Virus record (IMG/VR): IMGVR_UViG_2740892012_000013
Location: 1 to 43,002 of that record
Direction: 5' to 3' (one strand)
DNA: 43,002 nt
Origin: a virus
Lineage: Duplodnaviria; Heunggongvirae; Uroviricota; Caudoviricetes
In this document: piece by piece, positions 8,510-34,439 of the stretch
Layout of the letters: every line of letters starts with the position of its first letter
Position numbering within the stretch: the stretch's first letter is position 1
Made by a program: the position numbers and the translations under genes
The notes under the pieces: generated by a model
What the model was told of the DNA's origin: nothing
The model's input: only the letters and a program-made list of their open reading frames with translations
Databases searched by the model: none

Positions 8510-8526
8510 ATTACCTTAAAGGTAAA
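8510..8526. promoter_or_regulatory. Operator-like palindrome ATTACCTTAAAGGTAAA
   Basis: Near-perfect inverted repeat about 40 bp upstream of the 8568 start codon. Confidence 0.55.
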
Positions 8527-18876: not shown

Positions 18877-21347
18877 CAGAATCCCCCAACAGTAAGGCGA
18901 GGAATAACGGCAAGAACAGACAGCGGCAACGGATCAAGCTGACGGATTTTTACACGTCCGTTTTTGCCCCAGTTACTGTCCAGTTTCACTTCTACTTTTC
19001 CGGTAGCATCATCAACAGGATCATCGTAGAACTCGAATTCACGCTGTGGATATTCGTACCATTTACCGCCGGGCGTAGTCGCCCAGATGCCGCGACTGGC
19101 ATTCACAACCAGAGTAACGGAGGGGATCACCTGTTTTTTGTCCAGCAGCGTTTCCTGTCCGTTAATGTTGATATCCAGTGTTTCGAATTCAGCAGTTATT
19201 GGCAGGCCGATGTGCACTACAGCCCCCGGTGATTCCAGCGTGACGGCACCTCCGGAAACCACTTTCTGTGGTTCCACGTTCGCATCAGAGAGAATGTTTA
19301 CGGTCTGGCCTTCAAGATGAGACAGGCCTCCAAATGTCCGGCGCGCCATCTGCCAGTTCGTGGTGGCCACATTCCTGAGGGATGGCGGGACGTTCCTGTT
19401 AGCACGAACCACTACAGCGGTATTGCTGGTTACAGAAATAATGTCGCAACGTAATTCTTTTGACACTTCATCGCCAGTACCAGGATCAGTTCCGGCATAA
19501 GGGAACTGTAGTTGCGCGCCGACATCACTACTGGTGAAGTACGCACCACCAGAAATACTGATTGTATATTCCGCGCGGTAATCCCATTCACCAGAACCAC
19601 CAGTGATGGTCATCGTTCTGTCAGACGTATTTCTTCCATCATAGCTAAGGCCAGAATCAACAAAGAAAGCATCTTCATCGCTGGTAAATAAACGGCTGGA
19701 CAGTCGCTCGATGTATCTCACTGTTTGCCCGTTAACGGTTCGGTTAACGACGAAATACACCGCATCTTCATTTCCTTCGCTGATACTGCATGTGCTTTCA
19801 TATTTTCCGGTACTGGATTGTGGTGCCCATGCAAAAACCTGCTGATCACGCAAATAGGTCATCACCAGTAATTTACCGTCATCACGAATGCAGAAGGCGC
19901 TGGAGTAAGGGACAATAGAGAAGCACCAGTCAACAATACTGTGCTTCTGAAAAAGATGATTGGCAAGGATGGTCAGGTCGTTCCCCTGATAGCCGTCAAC
20001 ATCGAATGAGTAGGCCAGATCACGGACAACACTGCCTTTCTCCTGGACGAACAGAGCAATATTCGCCACGGCAATTGGTGGGACATTGCTCGAGCCATTT
20101 GATCCCTGAGAGCTGAATGCAAATGATGATGGGGTAAGCACTTTGTTCTGGTCGCCAGTGATGACGTACTCACCTCCGGAAGTCAGCGCCACCAGCGAAC
20201 CAACATCAATCAGGTGACGGATCTCATTAACCTGACGCCCGGCATAGGTGTAGATAATTCTGTCGTCATCCTGCGTAGGATTGCTTTTGCCAAAATCCTT
20301 ATAATCCCCGGTACGGCTGGCCCAGATAGTCTGAGGAAACGCAGTCGATGCGGCGAAGTAAAGACGTTGTTGATAATAAACAACAGTGCCAGGATAACCA
20401 TTAACACTGTTCCAGGCATATTTAGCCCATTTATAGCTGGCATTATCCTCGCCAACTACCTGCGAAGGGATATAGGAAATCACCTCGGCAGTTGCAGTAG
20501 TTCCATTTGCAGCAGTGATACGGGCAATGCCAAAACCACTGTGCAGATATTCCCACTCAATGCCAGTATCATCATCACCGGATCCGCCCCAGCCATCCCA
20601 TGATGTGCCTTCTGTATGCGAAGGGCGCAAAGTACCTGTTTTGCCTGCTTTAACGGCGCGATAGTAGTTACTGTCTGCTCGGCGAATATCGCCAATCGAC
20701 GTACTCTTACTGGTTTCCCATACCGGCACAGAATCCACTGCAGGCTGTTCCAGATAGAACAATTTGCCTACCTGCTCCGCGCCAAAAATAGAGGCGCTTG
20801 CCGTTAGCGTAATTGTCCCGGTGCTGGCGCTGGCATAAACCGTCACTGACTCGTCAATATTGATATCTTCAAATGGCCCGTTCTTCGTTACCACATCAAC
20901 CAGTTGCCAGTTGTCATGCGCATAGCGGCGCAACTCTTTCGGCGGGTATGCCGGATGAACAAGCGTAAGCACGTCGGCGCTTTGCGTGAATTTAATTCGG
21001 AACAGATCGGCTTCAGTATATGGCGTGGCAATTTCATAAATAACATTGCTGCTGTTCAGCACCAACGCACCATCTTTGATAACGCGCATGTACTGGTGTC
21101 CGAACTCCAGAGCATAGGTCTGAACCGTCGAGAACTGGAACGGGATCAGGCGGCATTTCCGATTTGGGTATTTGGCGGCACCGACAAAACGCGTACCTGG
21201 TCGATTCTCAACGCCGCCATACTGCCGCACGATAAAGTTATCGCACTTGCGCAATGCCACCTGGTACTTCGCCATGTCAATACGCCCGTACAACGACGGT
21301 CCAATCTCACCACCGGCAAAGCTGGGCTGGATCCAACTGATAGCCAT
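18876..21347 (-). CDS. Tail tube / tail hub protein (large)
   Basis: 823 aa following an adaptor-sized gene and preceding internal proteins, the position of T7 gp12-type proteins; no motif-level confirmation. Confidence 0.65.
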   Translation of the reverse strand: MAISWIQPSFAGGEIGPSLYGRIDMAKYQVALRKCDNFIVRQYGGVENRPGTRFVGAAKYPNRKCRLIPFQFSTVQTYALEFGHQYMRVIKDGALVLNSSNVIYEIATPYTEADLFRIKFTQSADVLTLVHPAYPPKELRRYAHDNWQLVDVVTKNGPFEDINIDESVTVYASASTGTITLTASASIFGAEQVGKLFYLEQPAVDSVPVWETSKSTSIGDIRRADSNYYRAVKAGKTGTLRPSHTEGTSWDGWGGSGDDDTGIEWEYLHSGFGIARITAANGTTATAEVISYIPSQVVGEDNASYKWAKYAWNSVNGYPGTVVYYQQRLYFAASTAFPQTIWASRTGDYKDFGKSNPTQDDDRIIYTYAGRQVNEIRHLIDVGSLVALTSGGEYVITGDQNKVLTPSSFAFSSQGSNGSSNVPPIAVANIALFVQEKGSVVRDLAYSFDVDGYQGNDLTILANHLFQKHSIVDWCFSIVPYSSAFCIRDDGKLLVMTYLRDQQVFAWAPQSSTGKYESTCSISEGNEDAVYFVVNRTVNGQTVRYIERLSSRLFTSDEDAFFVDSGLSYDGRNTSDRTMTITGGSGEWDYRAEYTISISGGAYFTSSDVGAQLQFPYAGTDPGTGDEVSKELRCDIISVTSNTAVVVRANRNVPPSLRNVATTNWQMARRTFGGLSHLEGQTVNILSDANVEPQKVVSGGAVTLESPGAVVHIGLPITAEFETLDININGQETLLDKKQVIPSVTLVVNASRGIWATTPGGKWYEYPQREFEFYDDPVDDATGKVEVKLDSNWGKNGRVKIRQLDPLPLSVLAVIPRLTVGGF

Positions 21348-21952
21348 CAGGACAACCTCGCAATGGTAAACTCGTCAACCGGTGGCTGTGGTTCCTGTGA
21401 TTCATTCTGGCTATGCGAGCCAGCACTAAGAATCACGCGATTGTACATATTGAGAGCAAATGTACCGAGATCCGCATTCCCAGTCAGCGCCATGTTAATG
21501 GCTGCCGCAAGACGCCAGGCCAGCGCCTCCATAAAAATGGCATCAAACATGTTTACATCTGAAACGCGAGAGACATACTTGAGCCATGCCTGCGGCTGGT
21601 CTGTGTAGATCAATTTTCCTGTTCCGTTGGTGTCTGCACCAACTTCGTACTGAACGCGCATTGCTGCTGTTGGATTGCGTACACCAGGAAGCATAATTTC
21701 AGTAATGCGCAGACAATCTGACGGGTACTGGTACGCATATTCCCAGTCAGGCGGTGGATTGCTCGTATCTGCAAGCGCCACGCGTTTGGTAGCAAAGTTC
21801 CAGTCAAAATCAGAAAGCACAGCATCACGGCAGGCCTCAAAGTGCAGCGAACATTCCCCCGCTTCCTTGCTGGCTTCCGTCAGGCTGTTAATGCTGCGGC
21901 TGTTGCCAATATTGGACAGCGCACGATTGCAGATCTCTACTACAGAGGCCAT
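21347..21952 (-). CDS. Head-tail adaptor / tail tubular protein A-like (by position)
   Basis: 201 aa; SD AGGAG; between capsid accessory genes and the large tail-tube gene. Confidence 0.5.
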   Translation of the reverse strand: MASVVEICNRALSNIGNSRSINSLTEASKEAGECSLHFEACRDAVLSDFDWNFATKRVALADTSNPPPDWEYAYQYPSDCLRITEIMLPGVRNPTAAMRVQYEVGADTNGTGKLIYTDQPQAWLKYVSRVSDVNMFDAIFMEALAWRLAAAINMALTGNADLGTFALNMYNRVILSAGSHSQNESQEPQPPVDEFTIARLS

Positions 21953-22008
21953 AAGTTTCTATACTCCTGCAATAAAGGGGCCGAAGCCCCTTGTCTGATT
22001 CGCGAGGC

Positions 22009-22344
22009 TTACACGCCCAGTTCTTTACGCTTATCTGCGATCTTCTCGCGTAGCGTTTCGGCTTTGGCGTTATGGTGTGGCTTCTCGTTAAAGAGCAATT
22101 CGTACTCTTCACGGAGCTTATCCAGTTCACCATCATCTGACACATCGTTGATGATTTTGGTGCTGGTTGCTGCCATTGACACCTTTCCTGCAACTTTTGC
22201 TTTTGCCTGTCTGGCTGCATCGTTAACAGGTTCCAGTGCGCTACCAGGCTCACCTTCGTATTCGATTTCTGCCCCCTCCGGCCACAGAGTGTTATGGATA
22301 TGAGAGAGGCGCAGAACGCGGTATCTTGGTTTCTCACCTGACAT
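22009..22344 (-). CDS. Small virion protein, function unknown
   Basis: ATG at 22344 with SD AAGGTGA 5 nt upstream; in capsid-tail gene block. Confidence 0.5.
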   Translation of the reverse strand: MSGEKPRYRVLRLSHIHNTLWPEGAEIEYEGEPGSALEPVNDAARQAKAKVAGKVSMAATSTKIINDVSDDGELDKLREEYELLFNEKPHHNAKAETLREKIADKRKELGV

Positions 22345-22354
22345 CGATATCACC

Positions 22355-22792
22355 TTAACCAGTTACTTTTGAGCGGATCGGGTACGGCGTATTGGCATCA
22401 ACATCCAGACTGATACCCGCAGTGAATTTGCCAGCCGTTAGTGGGCCAGTTGCGACGGAGTAGTTAACACGCAGATATCGCTGAACACCGGCAGGCACCT
22501 TTGCAGAAACAACTCGTTTACCTGCTGTCAGGGCGGTCTTTGCCAGTGCGCCACTATCATAAATAGTGGTCCATGAGCTGTTATTCTCACTCGTCTGCAA
22601 CTGGATGTTTACAGTTGCATCACCGCTTGCCGCGGCGGCTGCGTTAACCAGCGCCCAAAACTCAAGCGGGTAACCCACGCCGATATCACGACGTTTTCCG
22701 TCAATTGGACCGAGATCGATTACGTCAGTAGAAGCCGCGGTATTCGTAACCGCCTGAGCTTCGGAGAACATCAACAGTTTGTCGGTGATCAT
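22355..22792 (-). CDS. Capsid decoration / head accessory protein (putative)
   Basis: 145 aa immediately downstream of major capsid gene; SD GGAGAAAG. Confidence 0.55.
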   Translation of the reverse strand: MITDKLLMFSEAQAVTNTAASTDVIDLGPIDGKRRDIGVGYPLEFWALVNAAAAASGDATVNIQLQTSENNSSWTTIYDSGALAKTALTAGKRVVSAKVPAGVQRYLRVNYSVATGPLTAGKFTAGISLDVDANTPYPIRSKVTG

Positions 22793-22843
22793 CTTCTTTC
22801 TCCATTAGTGGGTCTGTTACGACCCACAGGTTAATAACAGGCG

Positions 22844-23836
22844 TTACACCACGCGGGCTTCTGTTTCCAGAAGCGCATCAGTTTCACGGATTGGTACACC
22901 ACGGAATGAAGTCCACCACTCGCCTTCTGTCTCTTTTACGCTGATAGCCAGAGATGTTTTCTCCAGAGACTGCAGATCAAGAGCCTGGCCTACAGTGCGG
23001 TTCATGTAGAACACCGGGCGGCCCATGCCACGGTTTGGAATGCGATGTAGTGCTTTAACCATCAACTTCGCAATATTTGCGGCAGAGGATGGTTCTGAAA
23101 GATTGCTGACATCGATGTTTGCAATGCGAACAACATAACGCCAGTCACGCAGAGCAAGTCCGTTGTCCCATTTGTAATGGGTACGGTAGCCTTCGTACTT
23201 GCCGCCATTAGCATCTTCCAGTGTCACCTGGCCTTTATCTTCCATCTGGATGCCAGCCTTCTGCCCTTTCGGGAAGATGCCATGCACGGTGTTTTCGCCC
23301 CACACCACTAACCAGATTGAGGTGTTATCTGTACCCGTGCCACCAGCATCAATGATGTTCTGAGCATTACCCGCAGACAGGCTGGAATAGCGGGAGGACA
23401 GTCCCATAAACTGCTGAGGGTTAACGCTGGAATCACCATAAAACAGTGTCTGCGCCATCTGCTGATTCATCGCTTCAATAAATGCGCGGTCTTCAGACAG
23501 GCGGAATTCGGCAGTATTACCGTTCAGATCAGCCAGTGACTTATCGACTTCAGCATAGGTTTCCAGCATGCCAACGGAATCGGTTACCTGCACTGTGGTT
23601 GATTTGCTTGGCTGTACGCCATAGTTCAGCAAACGCCAGGTAGCTGAAGGTAAACCAGAACGAATGGTGGTTCGGTGTCCGGTAGGAAGGTTCCCTTCGA
23701 CAAAAGGCATATCCTGAAGGATCGGGTTAGTTTGACCGAGAAGCTCGATAATCTTATCGACTTTCCCGTTTGGATCGACGCGCTTACCCCAGTCAGCCAG
23801 CGTTAGCGCAGTTAAGCCTTTAACAGCCATTGTCAT
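22844..23836 (-). CDS. Major capsid protein
   Basis: 330 aa, strong SD GAGAGGAA, directly after scaffold gene; size, position and high-expression codon usage fit a major capsid. Confidence 0.8.
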   Translation of the reverse strand: MTMAVKGLTALTLADWGKRVDPNGKVDKIIELLGQTNPILQDMPFVEGNLPTGHRTTIRSGLPSATWRLLNYGVQPSKSTTVQVTDSVGMLETYAEVDKSLADLNGNTAEFRLSEDRAFIEAMNQQMAQTLFYGDSSVNPQQFMGLSSRYSSLSAGNAQNIIDAGGTGTDNTSIWLVVWGENTVHGIFPKGQKAGIQMEDKGQVTLEDANGGKYEGYRTHYKWDNGLALRDWRYVVRIANIDVSNLSEPSSAANIAKLMVKALHRIPNRGMGRPVFYMNRTVGQALDLQSLEKTSLAISVKETEGEWWTSFRGVPIRETDALLETEARVV

Positions 23837-23844
23837 TTCCTCTC

Positions 23845-24540
23845 TTATTTGCCATAGAGCACTTCGGCCGCACTACGCTGGCCTTCATTACCACCGGTGA
23901 CCATGCCATCTTCAGACATCGCCTTTCCGATTTTCACGAACGTTTTGACCAGATCAGGGTGATTACCCAGCCCGGAGGTGTTCAGATATTCTTTGAGTTC
24001 AGGTGTCCCGAACTGGTCAAGCGCACGCTGTGCGGCGCTAAGGTTAGAAATCAACTTGTCGCCACCGATTTCTTTGTCGGCTTTTACATCCGCAGCCCAC
24101 TGCTCGGTTGTTTTCTGCCAGGCTTCTGCCTGGCGCTGCTGAACACCTGCCAGAATCTTCGGATAAGCATCAACCAGCTTTTGCGCTTGCTCGTTGGTCA
24201 GGTTTAGTTCTCGCGCCACCGGCTCGAATTCCTTCAACGCTTCTGTATCCAGCTCTACGCCTTCGGCAGCCTGAAACTCGTACTTCTCAGGCGCACCCTC
24301 TGGTTTATCGCCGTCCTTTTTTTCATCCTGCTTATCGTTTTCAGGCTTTTTGTCATCAGCAGGTTTATCGCCATCAGCAACAGGTTGTGGCTTATCACCT
24401 TCCTGTTGTGATGGATCACCAACTGGAGCAGGGTTATCACCTGCAGGAGCTGACGGTTCTGACGCAGCCGGAGCTGCTCCACCATCGACTGGTTGCTCAT
24501 TGCAAAGACGGCTATACAGCAAACGCTCAAATAAATTCAT
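23845..24540 (-). CDS. Scaffolding protein
   Basis: Pro/Ala/Asp/Lys-rich low-complexity N-half then helical charged C-half; SD AGGAG before ATG at 24540; between portal and capsid. Confidence 0.65.
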   Translation of the reverse strand: MNLFERLLYSRLCNEQPVDGGAAPAASEPSAPAGDNPAPVGDPSQQEGDKPQPVADGDKPADDKKPENDKQDEKKDGDKPEGAPEKYEFQAAEGVELDTEALKEFEPVARELNLTNEQAQKLVDAYPKILAGVQQRQAEAWQKTTEQWAADVKADKEIGGDKLISNLSAAQRALDQFGTPELKEYLNTSGLGNHPDLVKTFVKIGKAMSEDGMVTGGNEGQRSAAEVLYGK

Positions 24541-24542
24541 GA

Positions 24543-24839
24543 TCACTCCTGTTCACTGGCCTCTTTGGCCATCTTCAAATACTGTTCAGGGCAATGCGCC
24601 ATAACGCGCTGAAACAGTTCCAGCGCCAGATTGCGTTGCCCCTCATTAAATGCCATTGCCATAGCGTCCATCGGTGAGATAGCGGAAAACACACGGCCTT
24701 TCTCCAGCACCGACCAGACAACGCGACGCCCTTGTTCACTGCTCATGACAAAGCGAATGTCATCAATTTCACGCTGCGCCATGTCACGTTGCTTACGGGC
24801 GTTTTCTTCTTTCAGTTGATCGTCTTCGTAATCTGTCAT
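24543..24839 (-). CDS. Small head-assembly protein, function unknown
   Basis: 98 aa, translationally coupled (ATGA overlaps) with portal and scaffold genes. Confidence 0.5.
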   Translation of the reverse strand: MTDYEDDQLKEENARKQRDMAQREIDDIRFVMSSEQGRRVVWSVLEKGRVFSAISPMDAMAMAFNEGQRNLALELFQRVMAHCPEQYLKMAKEASEQE

Positions 24840-26515
24840 TGTGATTGCCCACCCTGACCACTAACTGCATTCGCCATAGCTGACAAAACACTCGGATCCG
24901 AAGTTTTAGCTTCGCTTAGCGTCTTGGCGCCCTGTGCCGCCGCCATTCCCATCGCCATCATTTGTTGCTGCTGTTGCTGCTGTGCCCGTTGCTGGCGAGC
25001 CTGCTCAACCTGTTCCTGCGGAACAATGACGGTTGGAGACACTCCGGACATATCAGCGAATGCATCGATCGCCTGATCAACATTGAGTTTGTCGAGAGCT
25101 TCTGGTTTCGCTTGCGCAAGTTGACCAATGAAGTTAACCGTGGACGCCAGACTGGACAGGCCGATAGACTTCTGCGCCTGAGCCATGACGGAAATGTATT
25201 CGACCTTCAGGGGCATGCCTTCCATCGCGTCAGGCGGTGGCGGCAGCATGTTTTTACGCACCATCATCGAGAAAGCGCGGTCAATGAGAGGATTAAGACA
25301 TTCGTCGTTCAGACGCTCCAGAACCGGCCCCAACATCAGAAGTTTTTCTTCTTTCATTTCGATCACCGCTTCAACAGGCATCGAGCGGGTATTGATGTTC
25401 TGCAACATCATGAACAGATCGACAAAGTAGGCGCTGTTAATGATTTGACGGGTGTCCTGAATGTCTGCCACCAAATCTGCTGTACTGGGGTTAACCAGAT
25501 AAGCAGGCCTGAAACCATCCTGACCAGTAATCTGATCGATATACGTGATGTCGCCAGGAAGAAGGGAGGCACGCTGATTCTTGAGGGAAGTCGGAGCAAC
25601 CATCGGCGGATTGGTGGCTTTATCAATCAACTGCGACTTGCGCTTCTGGAGAAGCTGCAATGCCTTAACAGGTCCAAGCGCCAGCATACCCGGGCATGAT
25701 GATCCATAAACATCTTCGCCGTTAACTTCCCAGCGCGGAGCCATAATTGGAAACTCATCGAATCCGGACTCACGCAACAACTTGTCGTTATCGCCACCAA
25801 CCTCGTAATAAACCGATTTGAATGGCTTGTTCTTGCTATCCAGCTTCGATGTATCGCGGTCAATGTTCGGGTAAACCGAATGCATCACTTCAATCCACTT
25901 CTCGTAGGTGCCGCTTTCCCACATGCTTTTTACGGATTCGCTGACGTTATTTAGCCCGAACTCCTGAACAAGCTGACGAACAGTCATAGAGAACTTGCGA
26001 AAACAGGTGTCCACACTGCCACGAGGTGAGTTAGCCAGGTAGTAACTGCCTATCGGGAATGGCATTGTGCGAATGATGTCCTCGTCATCCTCCAGCACTG
26101 CCATTGCACCAGTGCTGTATGTGCCGAGGCTTCCGTATAACTGCGGCAGAGACTGATAGAGATTCGACTTATTGAACATATCGTTCATGCGGTTCTGCAC
26201 CGCCTCAAGCCACAACTTAACAGGGCCATAATCCATCATTTCAGGATCTGGCGTAGCCAGGCGAAACCACGGACGCGCGGGGCTTGTGATGCCTGACATC
26301 ATGCCGCTGGCGAGAGTGCGCGCCGCCATAGTCCCGGTCGAATCAATAATGCGTGTATTGCGCCGATCGTTACGGTTGGCCTCAGAAGTCAGAAAGCGGG
26401 AACCACGCGGGTTGATGTAATCACTCAACTCGCGCCAGTGCGGCTCGAACGACTGACGCTCGCTTTCAAGTTGTGCGAACTGTTTGTTCAATCGCTCTTT
26501 AGTTGTTTCCGCCAT
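24836..26515 (-). CDS. Portal protein
   Basis: 559 aa directly downstream (same strand) of terminase genes; Gln-rich C-terminal tail; SD GGAG. Confidence 0.8.
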   Translation of the reverse strand: MAETTKERLNKQFAQLESERQSFEPHWRELSDYINPRGSRFLTSEANRNDRRNTRIIDSTGTMAARTLASGMMSGITSPARPWFRLATPDPEMMDYGPVKLWLEAVQNRMNDMFNKSNLYQSLPQLYGSLGTYSTGAMAVLEDDEDIIRTMPFPIGSYYLANSPRGSVDTCFRKFSMTVRQLVQEFGLNNVSESVKSMWESGTYEKWIEVMHSVYPNIDRDTSKLDSKNKPFKSVYYEVGGDNDKLLRESGFDEFPIMAPRWEVNGEDVYGSSCPGMLALGPVKALQLLQKRKSQLIDKATNPPMVAPTSLKNQRASLLPGDITYIDQITGQDGFRPAYLVNPSTADLVADIQDTRQIINSAYFVDLFMMLQNINTRSMPVEAVIEMKEEKLLMLGPVLERLNDECLNPLIDRAFSMMVRKNMLPPPPDAMEGMPLKVEYISVMAQAQKSIGLSSLASTVNFIGQLAQAKPEALDKLNVDQAIDAFADMSGVSPTVIVPQEQVEQARQQRAQQQQQQQMMAMGMAAAQGAKTLSEAKTSDPSVLSAMANAVSGQGGQSQ

Positions 26516-26529
26516 TTCAATGACTCCGG

Positions 26530-26736
26530 TTACTGACCAAGCAGCGTTTTACCGCTGGTATTAGCGGTTGATGTGTCGCCCTGAGAACCGGTAAGCAGCG
26601 TAGAACTACGACCAGCAGCAGCGCGACGGCGACGTGTTTCTTCGTCGCGGGCATCAACAACGGCGGCATCCTGCTCCTGTGGTGCTGCCTGAACTTCTGG
26701 TGTTGCAGGCACTGATGGTGAGCTACCCATGCACAT
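26530..26736 (-). CDS. Small acidic/Arg-rich protein upstream of portal
   Basis: Its initiation region ACGGAGTCATTGATATG nearly duplicates the portal's CCGGAGTCATTGAAATG; preferred over the overlapping 26517-26756 ORF. Confidence 0.4.
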   Translation of the reverse strand: MCMGSSPSVPATPEVQAAPQEQDAAVVDARDEETRRRRAAAGRSSTLLTGSQGDTSTANTSGKTLLGQ

Positions 26737-26825
26737 ATCAATGACTCCGTACGCAATTAAATTATTACCAATTTAACCACATATGATTTATTTATCGTAG
26801 ATAGTTGACATTTAACGCACAAATT

Positions 26826-26842
26826 ATTACCTTTCAGGTAAC
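26826..26842. promoter_or_regulatory. Operator-like palindrome ATTACCTTTCAGGTAAC
   Basis: Near-perfect copy of the recurring motif; TTGACA hexamer 16 bp upstream on the + strand (26805-26810). Confidence 0.5.
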
Positions 26843-27163
26843 CAAAGAGTTCATTCCGGTTACTAACCTGACTGGATTGTCGTTAAATTGAACAGGTGGA
26901 GTGAGCTTTTATTTTGAGCAGTACGGCGTATGGCACATGCGCCGATAGCGGTCTGGATACGTTTAAGGGGCACCCTCCCTTGCTCGGGCAAACGAACCAG
27001 GTAGCCGGAATGTGCAAGTCGAGCGGTTTTATTCCGCGCACGGGGATTCACCATCCCGGCGATTCGGTGTGACGCCTCGGAAGAGACGAGGGTACAACGA
27101 TGAGAGCATTTATGGAGCCGCGACAAAGTGTGGCGCCTTAACAGGCTAAGTGCTCTCAGCGTT

Positions 27164-27240
27164 GTGGCATTAGCTCAGTTGGACAGAGCAACCGCCTTCT
27201 AAGCGGTTGGTCGCAGGTTCGAATCCTGCATGCCACGCCA
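27164..27240 (+). tRNA. tRNA-Arg (anticodon UCU, reads AGA)
   Basis: Folded by hand: 7-bp acceptor stem GTGGCAT/ATGCCAC, D-arm GCTC...GAGC, anticodon stem ACCGC/GCGGT with loop CTTCTAA, T-arm GCAGG-TTCGAAT-CCTGC, discriminator G, encoded CCA. Confidence 0.9.
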
Positions 27241-27284
27241 GAATCACGCCTAAGGACCGTGATGCCAGAAGTTCCAGGGGCTTG

Positions 27285-27326
27285 GCGGTGATGGTTTCCC
27301 TTGAAGGACTATCACCGCCCTTTTTA
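27285..27326 (+). terminator. Rho-independent terminator downstream of tRNA
   Basis: Stem GGCGGTGAT ... ATCACCGCC followed by CTTTTT. Confidence 0.6.
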
Positions 27327-27403
27327 CAGCAGGACGCCATTGCGATGACTTCATGCTGTAAACCAGTACAGCCACGGAAGGCATAACTCATTGCTTCCAG
27401 TTC

Positions 27404-27427
27404 GCCCGGTTCGCCGGGCATTTTTTT
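27404..27427 (+). terminator. Second rho-independent terminator downstream of tRNA
   Basis: GCCCGG-TTCG-CCGGGC hairpin followed by A + TTTTTTT. Confidence 0.7.
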
Positions 27428-27438
27428 AAGGTGAGATT

Positions 27439-27846
27439 ATGAACGACCAGCAAATCGAAAAAGAAATCGTTGAGAAAGGCAAAACGGCACCGCGTGTAAC
27501 ACCTGAGAAAATTGAAGGCCTCATTTGCAGTGAGCATTTTTTCACTGCTGCGCAGGGTGATCACCAGGCTAAAGAAGATGACCTTATTTATAATCCGGAG
27601 CCTTATGTCGAAGCCACCCCTGATGCTCTGCACCTTCTCACTTTCTGCGTACTGGTGCTGAAGAATGGCTTCACTGTCACCGGAGAGAGTGCCTGTGCAA
27701 GTCCGGAAAATTTTGATGCAGAAATTGGTCGGAAGATTGCCCGGCAGAATGCTGTAAACAAAATCTGGATGCTTGAAGGTTACTTGCTGAAGCAGAAGTT
27801 AAGCGAGCAACAACACAGTGACATGTCACAAACAGCCAGCCGATGA
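27439..27846 (+). CDS. Hypothetical phage protein (moron next to tRNA)
   Basis: SD AAGGTGAG before ATG; 135 aa; own terminator hairpin overlapping the stop (about 27835-27860); opposite strand to flanking late genes. Confidence 0.55.
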   Translation: MNDQQIEKEIVEKGKTAPRVTPEKIEGLICSEHFFTAAQGDHQAKEDDLIYNPEPYVEATPDALHLLTFCVLVLKNGFTVTGESACASPENFDAEIGRKIARQNAVNKIWMLEGYLLKQKLSEQQHSDMSQTASR

Positions 27847-27903
27847 GCTGGCTTTGTTTTATCCTCATCAGAGGATATCAACGACATTATCCCCACCAGC
27901 GGA

Positions 27904-29379
27904 TTAAGCATACGGGTCATAATCTGTGATGGCCTTGCCTTGCTGGTTCTGCTGCCAGGGAAGTCGCAGGCGCTTCGACACCGGGAAAGCAAACGTCAGC
28001 AGCAGCGCATCGCCTTTACCCGGCGAACGCCCAAGTCGCTCTTTGATATCTTCCTTCGGTTCGATAACGATTTTACCGTCCACTCGAACTTTGTACTCTG
28101 CCGCCGACAGGTCGTCTGCAGTTTCCTGGTCATCCAGCATGCCGCCCAGCCTCAGCCATGTCTTACATGAGTTGAACATCTCCCCACGCTTGTTGAGCAT
28201 CTGCGGGTCAGTAGACGCGCCACCGAACGGAACAAGTTGCCATGTACGACCCCAGCCGTCACCGATTGACTTCAGACCAGTTCCGTAACCGAAGTCGATG
28301 AACACTGCGTCAGCCTGGTACTGGTCTTCAAAGTCAGCGATACGCTTCGCCATAATCAGATCGTCAGTGGTCTTGTTGCCAGTCCACAGCACCTTACTGT
28401 GCAGCCCCTGCCGCAGGTATATCACAGCGTCATCAACGCCTGAGTATGCCGGGTCAACGCCGATTATCACCGGAGCATGTGCAACCTGCGCAGCGGTGAC
28501 CACCCGTTTCATTGCCTCGTCAGTAAGTCCGGTAGGGATAAACTGCAATTCAGATGCATCCGGGAATATGCCGCGCACACGGATTTTAACGAAGTCGCTG
28601 TCTTCCCCGTAGTCATCAACCCATTTCTGCAACTGCTGTTTGTTGGTGCCTTCCACCGTCCGGCTGTCAATCTGCGCAGTTTTCCAGCGGTGTTTATATT
28701 TGCGGAAACATTCGCGGAAACGTCCGGTATTACGCGTCGGGTTTCCGAACGCCACCCAGATAATCTCAGTGTCTTCGTCCGTTAGCGCACCCTCGGCAAC
28801 TTCCCACACCAGATCCGCAATGTTCGACGCTTCATCGAATACCACGATGATGCGTTTGCGCTCGTTGTGTAGTCCGGCGAATGCCTCAGTGTTGTGCTCA
28901 GACCAGGGTATTGCGTCAGCTCGCCACCGCTTGTCGTGTCCAGGATCATTGCTGTACATCGCGGTAGCGGTACAGGTAAACCAGTCTTTCGTGATAGCAA
29001 GGTTCGACCACTTGATAATTTCCGGCCAGGTCTTCGTTCGTAGCTGGTTGTCGGTGTTGGCGGTCACCACAACCTTACAATCCTCGCAAGTGGACATGCC
29101 CCAGTTGATCAGCATTGAGATGAATGCGGATTTACCAATACCGTGACCCGAAGCGCGTGCCAGCATAAGCGGCTGATAGCGCGTCTCTGGATTCTGCAGG
29201 TGATCACGTATCTCTCGGAACGCATCAGCCTGCCACTGACGTGGACCGGTGGCATGTGCCAGTTCAGTCCCATCTTCCCCCCACGGGAACGCATAGAGGG
29301 CATAGCCAAGCGGATCGTGAGTGAACCCTGCAATATCCTCGATTAACTGCTCTTCAGGAGATAACGCTGTATCTGTCAC
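27904..29379 (-). CDS. Terminase large subunit
   Basis: 491 aa; GTG start overlapping TerS stop (GTGA); ATPase-like Walker A region (...ARASGHGIGKSAF...) and C-terminal nuclease-sized domain. Confidence 0.85.
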   Translation of the reverse strand: MTDTALSPEEQLIEDIAGFTHDPLGYALYAFPWGEDGTELAHATGPRQWQADAFREIRDHLQNPETRYQPLMLARASGHGIGKSAFISMLINWGMSTCEDCKVVVTANTDNQLRTKTWPEIIKWSNLAITKDWFTCTATAMYSNDPGHDKRWRADAIPWSEHNTEAFAGLHNERKRIIVVFDEASNIADLVWEVAEGALTDEDTEIIWVAFGNPTRNTGRFRECFRKYKHRWKTAQIDSRTVEGTNKQQLQKWVDDYGEDSDFVKIRVRGIFPDASELQFIPTGLTDEAMKRVVTAAQVAHAPVIIGVDPAYSGVDDAVIYLRQGLHSKVLWTGNKTTDDLIMAKRIADFEDQYQADAVFIDFGYGTGLKSIGDGWGRTWQLVPFGGASTDPQMLNKRGEMFNSCKTWLRLGGMLDDQETADDLSAAEYKVRVDGKIVIEPKEDIKERLGRSPGKGDALLLTFAFPVSKRLRLPWQQNQQGKAITDYDPYA

Positions 29380-30008
29380 TGATTACCATCCTGACGTTCT
29401 TTGAGTCGCTTCCTGGCTGCTGCTATGCGATCAGCAATTGTCACATTCACATTAACATCCAGACGTTCTTTGAATGCGTTGACATCAACATGCTTACCAA
29501 TCAGCTCAAGGTTCTTCACCTTGTCAGGCCATTTCACCTTCTTCAGGATATGCTCGACATCCTCAACAGAGAGATCCGCCTCGCCATTCTCTTTTTGCAG
29601 GGAAGCCTGGGTTGTCTTGATGGTAGCGATATCCATAGCACTGAGAGAGGTACGCCAGACCTTCGGCCATTCAGCGATCGGCTTCATCCCGCCGTCATCG
29701 TTCAGTATATCCAGCACGTCCATCTGGTCGATCTCCACCAGGCGCATGAGAACGTAATCAGCACTGACGCGCATTCGTTTGTTGCGCTCCTCCATCAACT
29801 CGGCAATCCGTTTTTGAATGCGTTCATCGCGCATCATGACACTTGCTTTAACTGCCGCTGTATTTGGGGAGAATCCTGCGTTAATCGCTGCCTGAGTCTG
29901 GTTTTCAGGCGTTTTGATGTATGACTGGCAATAAGCCTCCTGCATTGCTGTTAGTGGCTTAAATTGCGTTGATTTACGTTTATAGGTTTTAGGTTCAGCA
30001 GGCATCAT
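29376..30008 (-). CDS. Terminase small subunit
   Basis: From ATG at 30008 (SD GGTGG): ...KPLTAMQEAYCQSYIKTPENQTQAAINAGFSPNTAAVKA... matches TerS HTH-like motif; directly upstream of TerL. Confidence 0.7.
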   Translation of the reverse strand: MMPAEPKTYKRKSTQFKPLTAMQEAYCQSYIKTPENQTQAAINAGFSPNTAAVKASVMMRDERIQKRIAELMEERNKRMRVSADYVLMRLVEIDQMDVLDILNDDGGMKPIAEWPKVWRTSLSAMDIATIKTTQASLQKENGEADLSVEDVEHILKKVKWPDKVKNLELIGKHVDVNAFKERLDVNVNVTIADRIAAARKRLKERQDGNQ

Positions 30009-30015
30009 AACCACC

Positions 30016-30047
30016 GTGGTAATAGTTACCGTTGTGGTAATAGTACC
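30016..30047. repeat. Tandem direct repeat GTGGTAATAGT(T)ACC x2 just upstream of TerS start
   Basis: Copies at 30016-30030 and 30034-30047; each contains GGTAAT...ACC (operator half-sites in inverted order). Confidence 0.5.
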
Positions 30048-30050
30048 ATG

Positions 30051-30077
30051 CAAAATAAAGCCGCCATAGTTGGCGGC
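30051..30077 (-). terminator. Intrinsic terminator between nin-like block and TerS (minus strand)
   Basis: On the minus strand GCCGCC-AACTAT-GGCGGC followed by TTTATTTTG. Confidence 0.55.
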
Positions 30078-30082
30078 AGTAT

Positions 30083-30295
30083 TCAAAGTCCATCAAATTC
30101 ATCGTAAAAACTCTCGTCAAGATACCATTCCCATTTACCGCGAATGAAAATTACATCCTCGCCGCAAGGGTGCTGACTGTCGATAACTATATCCCTCCTG
30201 GCGCAACCATACTTATTCATGAGAAATTTAACCTCTTTCGGAAAATTTGCTGAGTTATCTCTCATATCTTCAAGGTCGTAGCGTATTTTTGGCAT
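30083..30295 (-). CDS. Hypothetical small protein
   Basis: ATG at 30295 with SD AAGGTG; 70 aa. Confidence 0.45.
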   Translation of the reverse strand: MPKIRYDLEDMRDNSANFPKEVKFLMNKYGCARRDIVIDSQHPCGEDVIFIRGKWEWYLDESFYDEFDGL

Positions 30296-30312
30296 AACAC
30301 CTTCGTGACATG

Positions 30313-30651
30313 TCACACTATTAATTTCGTTTCATGCCAGCCTTTGGTCACCCAGCATTGCGAGTCACCATTACACGGGCATGAATTAACTGGAACTCTC
30401 TCGCCGCACTTACCGCAACGTTTTCTGCTGATCGATTTTATACGCCCGCGCACGCGTGCATCATCCTGGCGGATCAGTAACGCTATATACTCACCAAATT
30501 CGTAAGGCGCACGCCCGGGGCGACGCGTGGCACAGTTACGCTCCAGCATTTCAATTTCCTGAGCATCAAGCACAATTTCCAGCTTACGCACACCAGATGC
30601 AGCTTGTCTGGCTCTCTGAGCGGCTTTGCGCTCTGCTGCTGATTTAGCCAT
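30313..30651 (-). CDS. Hypothetical protein with C-terminal Cys cluster (possible zinc-binding regulator)
   Basis: ATG at 30651; Arg/Ala-rich N-terminus and C-terminal RKRCGKCGERVPVNSCPCNGDSQCW. Confidence 0.45.
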   Translation of the reverse strand: MAKSAAERKAAQRARQAASGVRKLEIVLDAQEIEMLERNCATRRPGRAPYEFGEYIALLIRQDDARVRGRIKSISRKRCGKCGERVPVNSCPCNGDSQCWVTKGWHETKLIV

Positions 30652-30686
30652 CAATATTTACCTTTATCGCGAACACATTTACCGGT

Positions 30687-30929
30687 TTATCTCCTTTGCA
30701 TAGCACGTAATTTTTTCAGATGGTTCTCCTGTTCTGTTTCAGCCAGGATCTGGTGATATTCTCTGTGATCAATGTGTTCGAATAAATTATTGAATTTTCT
30801 GATGCACACTCTTCCAGGATAGCCATCCATCCTCTTGAAGAATACTGAGTGATCAGTACTACGAATGATTTTTACTGGATAGCCAGCGCTATCGGTGTAT
30901 ATCTGACCACGTTGAATCAGAGAGAACAT
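30687..30929 (-). CDS. DUF4222-like small phage protein
   Basis: 80 aa with ...FFKRMDGYPGRVCIRKFNNLF..., resembling DUF4222 prophage proteins from memory. Confidence 0.4.
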   Translation of the reverse strand: MFSLIQRGQIYTDSAGYPVKIIRSTDHSVFFKRMDGYPGRVCIRKFNNLFEHIDHREYHQILAETEQENHLKKLRAMQRR

Positions 30930-30995
30930 TCGTTTATCCCCAGATAAAAATATAGCAATACCAATTACATAAAATACTTCAGGCCAAGCATCATT

Positions 30996-31778
30996 TCACC
31001 CCTGCGGCGGTTCTGGTAGAGGCATCCAATTGATTACATCGCATTTAGGGATGCTGATATCATCACCAAGCCACCCTTGACCTTCAGACCAGCATTGCAC
31101 GTAATACCCGTATTCTGTGTTCACTACGCACCACTGCGCGTCGTTCGGCATTCGATCACTACAGCTTATCCAACCATCCGGAGTTACCGGAAGCGAGAAC
31201 GGCAGCACATCTCTGTGAACAAGTTTTTGCTGTGACAGGTTATCCAGAACTTTCTGTACTGCTGCATCACCGAATACACCAAGCGCATCTGCCATAACTC
31301 CTACAACCTGATAAGCCTCAGCGCATACCGTGGATAAACCATCCGGAATTACCGGATAGTTGGTTGACGTTTCCGCGATTTCCCGAAAATTATTGGTTGA
31401 CGAATTCTTATTTTCCCGAAAGTTTCCGGACTGAAGCATGGCGGCGCGGCAGGCGTTCCAGCCATCTGCGTAACAATCTCTGTGTGTCTTGAAATATGTC
31501 ACCGCCCTTGGTACATCGTTTACGTCTATTTCATCCGGCACAACCGGCGCAGGTGAGTCAGCATAAACAGGAATAACGTCCGGTTGCTCTTTATTGCTTT
31601 CATCCGTTAAAGCCCAGAATAATTTCCCGGCCGGATGTTTGAAAATATAAGCAACTGGTTCTGCTTCCAGTGATGCCAGCGCAATCCGTGCCAGTTCCAT
31701 TTGTTCACCACGGGTAAGCCCGTTTTCAAGCGGATTTTTAATGAACAATTCAATACGTTCTTTGGTAATAGTGGTCAT
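30996..31778 (-). CDS. DUF551-domain phage protein
   Basis: SD AAGGAG; C-terminal ...WISCSDRMPNDAQWCVV...VQCWSEGQGW...VINWMPLPEPP typical of DUF551. Confidence 0.55.
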   Translation of the reverse strand: MTTITKERIELFIKNPLENGLTRGEQMELARIALASLEAEPVAYIFKHPAGKLFWALTDESNKEQPDVIPVYADSPAPVVPDEIDVNDVPRAVTYFKTHRDCYADGWNACRAAMLQSGNFRENKNSSTNNFREIAETSTNYPVIPDGLSTVCAEAYQVVGVMADALGVFGDAAVQKVLDNLSQQKLVHRDVLPFSLPVTPDGWISCSDRMPNDAQWCVVNTEYGYYVQCWSEGQGWLGDDISIPKCDVINWMPLPEPPQG

Positions 31779-31788
31779 GTGTTACTCC

Positions 31789-32052
31789 TTAACCCGCAGT
31801 GCTTTCAACTGATGAGGGGAACAAAATCCTTTCATCAAATCCGGCATTCATATCATGGACAGCAACACACCAATCCATCGACGAACGATTATCAAGAGCC
31901 TCCATGATTTCATCCATGCGGCGCAGGTCATACAGGTAAATGCTTTTATCGCCAATGGTGTAAAAACCAATTTTTTTCGGTGATGGGCAGCGATCAAGAA
32001 CGTCCTGTAATTCGTTCAACCATGCCCGTTCTTTTTTTGTTAAAGTTGCCAT
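31789..32052 (-). CDS. Hypothetical small phage protein
   Basis: ATG at 32052 with SD AAGGAG (MATLTKKERAWL...). Confidence 0.5.
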   Translation of the reverse strand: MATLTKKERAWLNELQDVLDRCPSPKKIGFYTIGDKSIYLYDLRRMDEIMEALDNRSSMDWCVAVHDMNAGFDERILFPSSVESTAG

Positions 32053-32053
32053 A

Positions 32054-32647
32054 TCACTCTCCTTTGATGCGAATGCCAGCGGCGCGGGAATCATTCCATC
32101 GCTTTACTTCTTCACGAATTACGTCAATGCATTCTTTCGAATCCATTAGGTAATCTTCATCAAAAAGACGTTCCTGTTCGTTTTCTATCGCAACAATGAT
32201 TGCTTCAACTAACTTTTGTGCCTGAGAATCACTTTCTAACTCTGCTATGCGCTTACTTCCATCCGAGATAACGCCCTCGTAATACTCACGCTGCTCGTTG
32301 AGTTTTGATTTTGCCAACTCCAGTTGTTTTGTTAGTTCCGCAATACGGCAAACATCGTTGATACGCGTTTCCTCTAATGCGTTGATCTCATCCAACAATG
32401 CCAGCGCAACATTTGGATTAAAAGCAGCAATAAATTCAGCGTTTGCATAAGCCTGAACATCTGTTTCAACCAGGCAGTTAACATGACATTCTGCAATCAC
32501 GCCACCGGGTTCTCCTTTCCATTTTTGGCAAACAAAAACTCCTGTTAAATTGCCGTGCTGGTTAACAGATGTATGCCCTACGATGTAGCTCCCTTTCGTT
32601 GCCTTTTCTGCCGCATCACGCAGTGCCTGATAATTAATTTCGCTCAC
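32054..32647 (-). CDS. Ead/Ea22-like protein
   Basis: GTG start with SD GGAGGA; N-terminus SEINYQALRDAAEKATKG and central coiled coil typical of Ead/Ea22-like prophage proteins. Confidence 0.55.
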   Translation of the reverse strand: MSEINYQALRDAAEKATKGSYIVGHTSVNQHGNLTGVFVCQKWKGEPGGVIAECHVNCLVETDVQAYANAEFIAAFNPNVALALLDEINALEETRINDVCRIAELTKQLELAKSKLNEQREYYEGVISDGSKRIAELESDSQAQKLVEAIIVAIENEQERLFDEDYLMDSKECIDVIREEVKRWNDSRAAGIRIKGE

Positions 32648-32868
32648 TCTTCATCCTCCAAGTCGGCAACGGCGTCCATCACATCAGAACCGCGAATAAC
32701 CTCAAAAGCACGGCAGGCCATTTGAAATACCAGTTGCTCTTGCGGGTGAGGAGACTCCCAATATTTGAAGCCTGGGCGATGCGTGTACCCCATCATTGAA
32801 TAAAAATCACCAGCAAGCTTAATCGCGGCATCGACAAGCTCTCTGTTAGTCATTCTTTTTCCGCTCAC
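32644..32868 (-). CDS. Hypothetical small phage protein
   Basis: GTG start with SD AAGGAGG; translationally coupled to neighbours. Confidence 0.45.
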   Translation of the reverse strand: MSGKRMTNRELVDAAIKLAGDFYSMMGYTHRPGFKYWESPHPQEQLVFQMACRAFEVIRGSDVMDAVADLEDEE

Positions 32869-33302
32869 TGGTTGCCTCCTTTGCGAAGCTGGGCGGCTAA
32901 CTCATCACATATGTGCGTCAAAGAACAAAGTTTGATTGATGGATGTTCGCGCATCATCTCTACCCCCTGCGCCCGCACTTCAGACAGGAAAGCATCGGTG
33001 GCTGGCATATTTCCTGTTGCCTTCATTGCCTCCAAAATAACCAGAACGCCATCTCGCCCAATCTCCTCGCAGATAACCTCGGTGCTGTCGCCAACAACAT
33101 CGCAAAATGCCTGAACTGCTTTACGAGCCAGCGCATTCTCCGCAGCCAGCGCATTAGCACGCACCAGTTGCACTTCCAGCTGCGTTGCCAAATCGCTGAT
33201 CAGCTTTGCCACACTGCGCATATCAACGGCACCACATTCTGCTTTCAGTTCCGAAGCCATCTCATGCCCGGCGGAAACTAACCCTTTGATATTACTTTCC
33301 AT
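32865..33302 (-). CDS. Hypothetical phage protein
   Basis: SD GAGGG before ATG at 33302; 145 aa helical protein. Confidence 0.5.
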   Translation of the reverse strand: MESNIKGLVSAGHEMASELKAECGAVDMRSVAKLISDLATQLEVQLVRANALAAENALARKAVQAFCDVVGDSTEVICEEIGRDGVLVILEAMKATGNMPATDAFLSEVRAQGVEMMREHPSIKLCSLTHICDELAAQLRKGGNQ

Positions 33303-33363
33303 CTTTACCCTCGCTTATCCACATAACTTATTGATTACATTGATAACTAAAAAGATCGTCGAT

Positions 33364-33972
33364 TCATGCCGATCTATTTTTCATCAGTGATTCATAAAAC
33401 TTTTGCCACTTATGCCGACCGAAATTAGCCTTCGAGTTACAGCTCGAACAAAGGCAAATAAGGTTCTCCTGACGACAATCTTGCTTGTCGTAATTGATGT
33501 GATGAGTTGTTAGCCTTTTGTCTGTTCCATCACAACCTGGGTTCTGACAAGTAAAACCATCTCGCTCAATAACCCTCTTGCTCGTTTCTCGGAAATCCCA
33601 CGGATACGGCAATCTCGATAATCCACCAGACCAGTTTGGATTTCCTTCCCCCTTCATCAGAGAAGAACGCATTATGTTGGAACACTGTTTCGAGCAGCAT
33701 TTATGACGCTTCTCATGACTCAAGAAAACGGAGAACGAAGATCCGCATACGCAGCATATTTTTAATACTCGCTTTAGTTCCCGATTTACCGTCTTGCCTC
33801 GCTGTGAAATTCCTACACACTGAAGTGAGCAGAACCTTGAAGATGAGTTGGCTCGCTTAACCTGATATTGCCTGCCACATACGGAGCAAACCTTTTCGAT
33901 TTTCCCACCCTTCCAATTCGGGTTTTTATCACCGGATACAATCAATCCCGCAGCATTGGGCTTCTCGCTCAT
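33364..33972 (-). CDS. HNH endonuclease
   Basis: Multiple CxxC pairs and ...TTHHINYDKQDCRQENLICLCSSCN... HNH motif. Confidence 0.7.
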   Translation of the reverse strand: MSEKPNAAGLIVSGDKNPNWKGGKIEKVCSVCGRQYQVKRANSSSRFCSLQCVGISQRGKTVNRELKRVLKICCVCGSSFSVFLSHEKRHKCCSKQCSNIMRSSLMKGEGNPNWSGGLSRLPYPWDFRETSKRVIERDGFTCQNPGCDGTDKRLTTHHINYDKQDCRQENLICLCSSCNSKANFGRHKWQKFYESLMKNRSA

Positions 33973-34322
33973 AGTTCCTCAACCTCCCATCCACCACCGA
34001 GCTTTTTAGGTTTTGGATAAGCAACCTGAAAGACAAACGGATAGCTGTCTGCCGCAACCTTCATCTTGACTCTCGCATCGTCAGTAAAGACTGACTTACT
34101 TCCCTTAACGTCCACCATCACCAACTGCCCGTCAGCCAACATCACGGCAAAATCTACAGTCAGGAAGCAGTTGTCAGCTAACCGTAGCTTGATACCCTCG
34201 AATCGATACCAGGCGATTTCCCCTGCACGTTTACGAAGCTCAAGGTGCTGGCAATACGCAGATTCTGTTTTGTTCATCTGGCCTGTTTTGAGTCGACCAA
34301 GAGCCTGTATCTGTTTTCTCAT
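33969..34322 (-). CDS. DUF1064-like protein (nuclease-like fold suspected)
   Basis: 117 aa; ...ESAYCQHLELRKRAGEIAWYRFEGIKLRL...FTVDFAVMLADGQLVMVDVKG resembles DUF1064 proteins from memory. Confidence 0.5.
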   Translation of the reverse strand: MRKQIQALGRLKTGQMNKTESAYCQHLELRKRAGEIAWYRFEGIKLRLADNCFLTVDFAVMLADGQLVMVDVKGSKSVFTDDARVKMKVAADSYPFVFQVAYPKPKKLGGGWEVEEL

Positions 34323-34324
34323 GA

Positions 34325-34403
34325 TTTACCCCTGAGGTAATTAAAAACCACATAAGACACGAAATCAATAGATTTTAGAATATTTTATTACCTAACAGGT
34401 AAT
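34325..34403. promoter_or_regulatory. Two operator-like palindromes upstream of the DUF1064-like gene (34325-34341 imperfect; 34387-34403 perfect ATTACCTAACAGGTAAT)
   Basis: Motif copies in the P / nin-like intergenic gap. Confidence 0.55.
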
Positions 34404-34439
34404 TGTCGAGGCGTAAAAAAATGCGCTATCGCGCTGGTA

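Follow-up and report, generated by a model that had tools for sequence, protein, structure and literature searches.

The locus studied here raises the question of what precedes a phage tRNA gene that lies, on the plus strand, between the packaging and head genes of the opposite strand, and of what this upstream stretch does. It belongs to a viral DNA of 43,002 nucleotides, which was analysed as a whole and is called the window below. BLAST searches found the region to be 97-100% identical to phiV10, the O157 typing phages 9 and 10, TL-2011b and many E. coli prophages, and 70-82% identical to Salmonella SPN1S-type, Klebsiella and Enterobacter Uetakeviruses; on this comparison, the host context of the island is a phiV10/epsilon15-like prophage. 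According to PGAP and the phage records, the minus strand carries in order TerS, TerL, the island, a 68-aa gp3-like gene and the portal gene, and the interior of the island holds the tRNA-Arg and a Gp49-family gene on the plus strand. In the window these are the portal gene (24836-26515, minus; PF12236, E=9e-188), a large terminase of 491 aa named from the phiV10 record (27904-29379, minus) and a moron gene of the Gp49 / Sf6 gene 66 family (27439-27846, plus; Phage_gp49_66, PF13876, E=3e-34). A terminator scan marked terminator-like sites at 27284-27319, 27404-27419 and 27834-27853. A preliminary description of this DNA had noted the tRNA, two terminators downstream of it, the moron gene and an orientation opposite to that of portal and TerL, all of which we confirmed.

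The tRNA-Arg(UCU) gene occupies 27164-27240 of the plus strand, with its 3' CCA encoded, and was called by both ARAGORN (anticodon tct, at position 35) and Rfam (RF00005, 73.3 bits, E=2.6e-14, for a gathering score of 29); the agreement of the two programs upholds the earlier call, and an identical tRNA-Arg gene is annotated by PGAP in E. coli genomes. Counted over 48 ORFs of the window, AGA occurs 7.2 and AGG 5.0 times per 1000 codons, compared with about 2 and about 1 per 1000 in E. coli K-12, which bears out the expectation that the tRNA serves codons rare in the host. Within the same 48 ORFs, both codons are concentrated in the tail and early genes and missing from the head and packaging genes. 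With this abundance and distribution the codon-supply reading of the tRNA stands, and the phage tRNA-Arg(UCU) would matter mainly for the tail and early genes. For AGA by itself, the genes without the codon are the head, portal and terminase genes (22355-29379), and those in which it is frequent are the tail and early genes (3176-21347 and 30313-36037), with for example 13 in the ORF 15120-17837.

Upstream of the tRNA, the preliminary description had placed a structured leader at 26880-27160 and had suggested that it might be a degenerate tRNA, an ncRNA or a processing leader. The bounds were roughly right, the conserved element running from 26921 to a terminator at about 27325 with a promoter/operator region at 26805-26841; the structured, non-coding character and the ncRNA suggestion were borne out, and the degenerate tRNA and the mere tRNA-processing leader were not. 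The element begins with what we call the head domain (26921-27099, plus), about 180 nt that contain four hairpins and a pseudoknot. In the covariance-based model, the P1 hairpin (26924-26944) is followed by P2 (26951-26956 with 26997-27002), which encloses a variable three-way junction, by the invariant 19-mer GGTAGCCGGAATGTGCAAG (27000-27018), by the variable P3 (27021-27039), by the P4/P5 pseudoknot (27043-27072) and by the P6 hairpin, CCTCG-GAAGAGA-CGAGG (27075-27091). The model, R1, was derived from an alignment of 35 diverse copies (A2), in which invariant sequence blocks stand between hypervariable hairpins. For P1, P2, P4, the P5 pseudoknot and P6, 97.4% of the alignment cells are paired, against 28-52% when the partners are slid; 12 of the 28 head-domain pairs have changed on both sides, and the observed covariation score was reached in 0 of 500 shuffles. 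Covariation thus supports five helices, one of them the pseudoknot. Between genera, at 70-75% identity, the helices are kept by compensatory changes and the loops and tips diverge, and near-invariant single-stranded stretches are present beside the pseudoknot. A further pseudoknot could join the apex of P1 to the 19-mer (GCACAU with AUGUGC); its two sides are invariant, apart from a few variants that show no compensation.

Several pairs of the head domain are invariant G.U, which the other strand would give as C.A, and this indicates that the RNA is read from the strand of the tRNA. The fold z-score of the upstream stretch is -4.3 on the plus strand and -2.8 on the minus strand. When R1 was run on the window it gave a single match, 26921-27099, with 145 bits and E=1.6e-43. 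The loop of P2 (26958-26996) and that of terminator 1 (27296-27310) share an anti-Shine-Dalgarno-like motif, UUCCCUUGAUGCU in the Salmonella types and UCCCUUG in the window. Phage epsilon15 has lost most of the element by a deletion that runs from a copy of TTCCCTTGATGCT in the P2 loop to a second copy in the loop of the terminator; in its locus (L005, 1749-1960) just P1 and half of P2 remain, fused to the terminator.

The head domain is followed by stem F (27095-27164), a helix of about 18 bp formed by a 5' strand at 27095-27110 and a 3' strand at 27149-27164, and the first tRNA bases, GTGG, double as its base. Fifteen pairs are predicted, 10 of them with compensatory change, and the duplex energies range from -24 to -35 kcal/mol across variants. 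Stem F carries a tip cassette, in the window two small hairpins (27111-27148). Among relatives the tip varies from 4 to about 170 nt, is unrelated between otherwise near-identical scaffolds and recurs on different ones, so that cassettes have been shuffled between scaffolds; some tips contain T-arm-like GGTTCGAATCC hairpins or a pseudo-tRNA. A second slot lies 3' of GUUGUGG; 29 of 133 loci have tRNA-Arg(UCU) there, and many of the rest have a tRNA-like RNA with a 9-bp acceptor-like closing stem (GUUGUGGUG/CACCACAAC) and two hairpins whose loops are complementary (GCUGAU/AUCAGC, jointly changed to GCUAAU/AUUAGC in locus L089). GUUGUGG itself has alternative partners, the 5' base of stem F on the one hand and a downstream CCACAAC or the 3' strand of the tRNA on the other. 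A directly adjacent, co-oriented tRNA was present in 46 of the 133 loci and none was adjacent in the other 87, and the copy in phage P1 lies 3' of a tRNA, which speaks against the tRNA-linked origin proposed earlier for the leader. It is very probable that the leader is a genuine structured RNA family for which the tRNA is one interchangeable cassette.

Behind the second slot come a conserved hairpin H (27243-27263, plus; ATCACG-CCTAAGGAC-CGTGAT), found in relatives after both tRNA and tRNA-like modules and with the variant ATCACG-TAGCCAG-CGTGGT, and intrinsic terminator 1 (27284-27325, plus), whose loop carries TTTCCCTTGAAGG, the anti-SD-like motif also seen in the P2 loop; these two close the unit. 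They are followed on the plus strand by a conserved spacer hairpin (27326-27359) and intrinsic terminator 2 (27404-27427). On the 5' side, the leader 26842-26920 (plus) resembles by eye a decayed copy of an F-type stem module, F0. Tyrion, PAT1 and BUCT554 have at this position CACAAC..AAAGCGCGC..//..GCGCGCUUUCAG-GUGUG, an intact F0, and the copy in the window pairs poorly, so this leader looks like a decayed form of a module that is intact in other Uetakeviruses. In one phage group (loci L046, 7150-8350, and L081, 4850-5900), two short units reminiscent of parts of the head domain are repeated many times before the element and after its terminator, one being UGACA plus stem-GGAAAGAC-stem (P6-like) and the other GCCUGACCAGC (P4-like), and these repeats form an untranslated leader of about 450 nt ahead of the first ORF.

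The element was found in 1840 of 5426 complete E. coli genomes, in 1472 of which a place spans 80% or more of the query, and also in 590 plasmids. A pattern scan with one genome per species found it in about 20 species of Enterobacteriaceae and in Erwinia dacicola; the other eight matches, in unrelated taxa, looked like chance. Distant BLAST comparisons showed that the last ~240 nt of 26757-27163 are about 82% identical to unannotated DNA in unrelated lambdoids (mEp460, cdtI, 2H10, Ayreon, Stx2c and Stx2a phages) and that about 165 nt of the leader are about 80% identical to P1-like plasmids. The authentic P1 copy fills a 286-nt unannotated gap between trnI and ban, in a record of 535 curated features, and is 100% identical to the plasmid copy. 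The element has three settings, the Uetakeviruses, the lambdoids, where it lies just after a pL-like promoter, and P1, and it stands near the front of early units. Identity is high within each host genus, each phage has one copy and no counterpart on the pR side, and the class of the downstream gene is inconsistent across the settings (Gp49, YfdP and Ban). In P1 the head domain comes directly after the tRNA-Ile and the element has no terminator behind it; the head domain of locus L141 likewise lies behind a tRNA or tRNA-like module. A census of terminators and first ORFs over 118 contexts was uninformative, since terminators with long loops escaped it and spurious ORFs were called within the RNA.

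In the mEp460-type lambdoids the order is cI, the cI terminator, operator-like repeats (TTGCATA..GCAA) with a -10-like hexamer recognised by eye, the element, a tRNA-like module, a strong hairpin with a T-run, a further F-like stem and the early-left genes. The first genes behind the lambdoid element are YfdP, YfdQ and YfdR-like, with no N-like gene among them. In K-12, CPS-53 has lost the element, whose position precedes the yfdPQR operon in other strains. The second long F-like stem (ACAAAACAGAGAAGAGCA...UGUUCUUCUCUGUUUUGUGG) was seen in L006 (2930-3025) and L144 after the strong hairpin and T-run, just before yfdP, and its place suggests that this "terminator" may be internal to a longer RNA array.

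The window region has a putative sigma-70 promoter at 26805-26841 (plus), with TTGACA, a spacer of 17 nt and TACCTT, which a manual scan scored 9/12; a stricter automated promoter scan of the region returned no promoter. An operator-like palindrome, TTACCTTTCAGGTAA (26827-26841, plus), overlaps it, and the homologous position in epsilon15 is annotated as repressor and IHF binding. From these features we infer the promoter/operator identity of 26805-26841. In the Stx2c type a TTGACA-16-CATAAT promoter ends 54 nt upstream of the P1 hairpin, and in Kosakonia and other contexts the -10 of a TTGACA promoter lies closer, ending 7-8 nt ahead of this hairpin. The tciABC-trnI-ban operon of P1 is, we presume, c1-controlled through Op72; if so, the Uetakevirus, lambdoid and P1 settings would all be repressor-controlled early units. 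These observations also bear on the earlier statement that late transcription must cross the island antisense, which is not established. The hairpin after the moron gene (27834-27853) is given in the phiV10 record as a minus-strand terminator, for the terminase transcript, and 26757-26841 resembles a divergent control region with operators, where repressor and IHF sites are marked in the epsilon15 record. It may be that the promoters of the island and of the head genes form a divergent pair under repressor control; the late operon would then not have to read through the island. The sequence ATTATTACC is present twice, at 26760 and 26822, beside a candidate promoter directed leftward into gp3/portal.

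The 3' strand of stem F (27149-27164, plus) carries a boxA-like sequence, AGUGCUCUCAGCG. Stem F 3' strands read UGCUCUUUCC or, in the window, UGCUCUCAGC, followed by GUUGUGG. Set against the boxA consensus UGCUCUUUAACAA, the window has UGCUCUCAGCG, which is paired within stem F; the commonest version of stem F departs from the consensus (UGCUCUCA) and L165 does not have the motif. A 14-mer of the rrnH leader, TGCTCTTTAACAAT, recurs exactly just after the head domain in L093. Among the variants collected, the GAGAGC/GCUCUC core of stem F has undergone mostly transitions and was never seen inverted between the strands, which suggests that the 3' strand is read sequence-specifically, beyond its pairing. 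In L093 (~3330-3500), L037 and L050, a hairpin and then an exact or near-exact rrn boxA (TGCTCTTTAACAAT, AGCTCTTTAATAA, AGCTCTTTAAAAA) take the place of stem F, and L093 has a second boxA-like sequence, AGCTCTTTCAATCA, further on.

The reading that we favor, with a probability of roughly 0.45, is that the island is an early, probably repressor-controlled stable-RNA operon in which the head domain and the boxA-like strand act on the transcription complex. The early promoter (~26805-26841), probably under repressor control, would produce one untranslated plus-strand transcript of about 480 nt, composed of the head domain (26921-27099), the 18-bp stem F with its tip cassette, tRNA-Arg(UCU), the conserved hairpin and the terminator. 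Host RNases (P, III and E) would release the tRNA, which would then decode the AGA codons, of which this phage has an excess. Co-transcriptionally, the head domain together with the boxA-like 3' strand of stem F would act on RNA polymerase and Nus factors, in the manner of put, nut or rrn, and this action would prevent termination of the long untranslated transcript and, in the lambdoids and P1, also of the genes behind it. That the job of the head domain is control of transcription elongation or antitermination is a tentative proposal, which we would put at somewhat under even odds. It is favored by the nutL/putL-like position in lambdoids that have no N-like first gene, by the terminators downstream, by the boxA-like strand and by the mobility of the element between unrelated phages. 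It is weakened by the blank result of the covariance model in HK022 and HK639 and by the single copy per phage with no pR-side counterpart, as well as by the plus strand downstream in the window, where just one moron gene leaves little to reach. Antitermination is weakened further by the module often having its own terminator, like a self-contained ncRNA gene, by the P1 and L141 head domains, which lie behind a tRNA or tRNA-like module and do not head the transcript, and by the boxA-like strand being paired, off-consensus in its commonest version and absent in L165. The promoter step is weakened by the automated scan.

A bolder form of the proposal, which we regard as rather unlikely, is that the head domain is a new class of RNA that works directly on the transcription machinery of the host, as an RNA-only antiterminator or a recruiter of Nus factors, and that it is joined to a platform for RNA cassettes. 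By means of the conserved closing stems CACAAC...GUUGUG, temperate phages would be able to take up and discard tRNAs, pseudo-tRNAs and tRNA-like decoys through recombination. If this were true, the swapping could, for instance, counter tRNA-targeting defences, and the element would be a mobile RNA-level accessory system common to P1, lambdoids and podoviruses.

The alternative that survives best, although we consider it doubtful, is that the RNAs are themselves the payload, the head domain and the stem-closed cassettes being stable trans-acting ncRNAs cut from a polycistronic precursor. They would act on factors of the host or of rival phages, as a protein sponge, as antisense immunity of the C4/CI kind or as decoys of anticodon nucleases, and any boxA would just shield this precursor, which is untranslated, from Rho. 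In its favor are the promoter and terminator that the module often has to itself, the ability of the head domain to come after other modules, and the topology of stem F with two tip hairpins, which matches that of C4 RNA, a closing stem with two hairpins. The tRNA-like modules of the second cassette, with their 9-bp acceptor-like stem and co-changed complementary loops, the T-arm-like hairpins of some tips and the shuffling of cassettes between scaffolds point the same way. However, complementary targets of at least 11 nt in the same prophage are at the level of chance (11 found for 8.4 expected), no partner protein co-occurs across the three phage groups, and the nutL/putL slot in lambdoids without an N-like first gene is left unexplained.

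It is improbable that the head domain is a riboswitch-like leader that senses a ligand or factor and sets read-through of the downstream terminators. Near-invariant single strands combined with a pseudoknot are typical of aptamers, the position is promoter-proximal with terminators downstream, and GUUGUGG has alternative pairing partners, but the terminators are 200-300 nt off, behind independent modules, the downstream gene class varies (Gp49, YfdP, Ban) and the P1 version is not followed by a terminator. A still poorer prospect is that the stretch is a mere tRNA leader, a set of decayed tRNAs or a DNA-level site (operator, recombination hotspot or ssDNA hairpin), its similarity among phages coming from recent horizontal transfer and not from RNA function. 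Adjacency to a tRNA in 46 of 133 loci, T-arm-like pieces in some cassettes and the high identity within each host genus are consistent with it; against it stand the 87 loci without a tRNA, the helices kept by compensatory change at 70-75% identity, the strand-specific invariant G.U pairs and the fact that the three phage groups have no replication or packaging mechanism in common that would use a single DNA site. A small protein encoded in 26863-27126 (minus) or 26914-27072 (plus) is extremely improbable. The ORFs of 87 and 52 aa do exist, and mEp460_037 and the BUCT554 hypothetical ORF are annotated over the element, but ORFs overlapping it have no Pfam match, the lengths of the relatives spread over all three mod-3 classes (with 7, 13 and 15 relatives), 4 of 35 relatives have no open frame on either strand and the variation is of the helix type.

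Among the known systems, the put sites of HK022 and the putL-like RNA of HK639 are similar as cis-acting RNAs placed just after an early promoter, in lambdoids without N and ahead of terminators. In mEp460/Stx2c-type lambdoids the element has this placement, just behind the early promoter and upstream of terminators, and in the window the order is promoter-like site, element and two terminators. Like put, the element would need the host RNA polymerase alone and could thus move between phages, and the annotated putL-like antiterminator RNA of HK639 occupies the same pL-proximal slot with no annotated putR, the element also being single-copy. It differs from put in size (about 180 nt plus stems, against ~70-126 nt), in its pseudoknot, in its linkage to tRNA and tRNA-like cassettes and in its presence outside lambdoids, in podoviruses and P1, and its antitermination activity is hypothetical; that of put, which acts in cis, depends on the zinc-binding domain of the RNA polymerase beta-prime subunit. 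Homology to put, an RNA of two stem-loops and ~70 nt, was rejected, since neither HK022 19000-32000 nor the complete HK639 genome, with its putL-like 34187-34312, has a match to R1 at E<=10, and by eye just short motifs (GGAAGAG, GCTCTTT) are common to both. A lambda-type nut site was rejected on two counts, the lack of an N-like first gene after pL and the single P6-type hairpin of the window, and a lambda-type boxB because the P6 loop GAAGAGA is a heptaloop and not a GNRA-like pentaloop.

The rrn leader and spacer, with their antitermination and processing signals (boxB-boxA-boxC and RNase III stems), share with the element a long untranslated structured transcript, long stems that enclose variable RNAs and tRNAs embedded between modules. 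The element has boxA-like UGCUCUUU sequences followed by GUUGUGG, and L093 has the exact rrnH 14-mer; in the element, however, boxA is paired in stem F and imperfect in the window, there is no rRNA and Nus binding is hypothetical. C4 / P4 CI antisense RNA (RF01695, processed by RNase P) is also built of a long closing stem with two hairpins, its specificity lying in their loops, and a true C4 is present in the window at 7616-7701, but no target sites above chance were found in the prophage; identity with C4 was rejected as 26500-27900 had no match to RF01695 at E<=10. GOLLD, ROOL and the T4 species 1 and 2 RNAs, the last two of which we take to be tRNA-linked stable RNAs comparable to the element, are likewise structured phage ncRNAs of obscure role near or co-transcribed with tRNAs; the element, however, is smaller, has Enterobacteriaceae as hosts and gives no Rfam match to GOLLD or ROOL. 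With cmscan at E<=10, Rfam 15 gave over 26880-27163 just the tRNA and noise, and the element in six related loci had no match at E<=1, so GOLLD, ROOL, YrlA, tmRNA, group I intron and riboswitches were rejected for want of a covariance-model match. Integron attC-like boundaries (RYYYAAC / GTTRRRY) were rejected too, as GCACAAC/CCATAAC and GTTGTGG break the Y and R positions; IntI is not present in the phages bearing the element. The UG27 ncRNA array is a separate, RT-linked system.

Annotations of the tRNA and of the Gp49 moron exist already in relatives, and the RNA family heading the tRNA operon is, to judge from these comparisons, in all likelihood undescribed. Neither its invariant sequences nor the concept was matched in the papers searched, and an earlier description elsewhere is possible. 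The annotation of the element was "None" throughout the E. coli matches listed, and the curated P1 record is likewise empty there. About a third of complete E. coli genomes contain the head domain without annotation, as do textbook phages, namely P1, the phiV10/epsilon15 group and the Stx2c-converting and other lambdoids without an N-like first gene. If control of early transcription is its role, the way in which a large group of such lambdoids gets past its early terminators would be accounted for, and nut and put would be joined by a third RNA solution; if it is a trans-acting platform with exchangeable tRNA-like cassettes, it is relevant to phage counter-defence and to the question why phages have tRNAs. 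On either reading, several deposited ORF annotations over the element are probably wrong and the family merits an Rfam entry. The ORFs phiV10 p04 (window 27170-27421, minus), mEp460_037 (L006 2443-2811, minus) and the hypothetical ORF of BUCT554 (L013 2304-2555, minus) run antisense over the tRNA or structured RNA and are probably spurious.

The island between TerL and portal seems to serve generally as a landing pad on which small RNAs and morons settle. In phage Tyrion (L011, 3385-3449) an int-alpA RNA (RF02996, 44 bits) is found in the same island. Elsewhere on the plus strand of the window, Rfam called isrK at 7516-7591 (72 bits), the C4 antisense RNA at 7616-7701 (78 bits) and sar RNA at 10650-10717 (45 bits), a region that looks like the P22 immI / P1 immI-like antirepressor control region of this Uetakevirus prophage.
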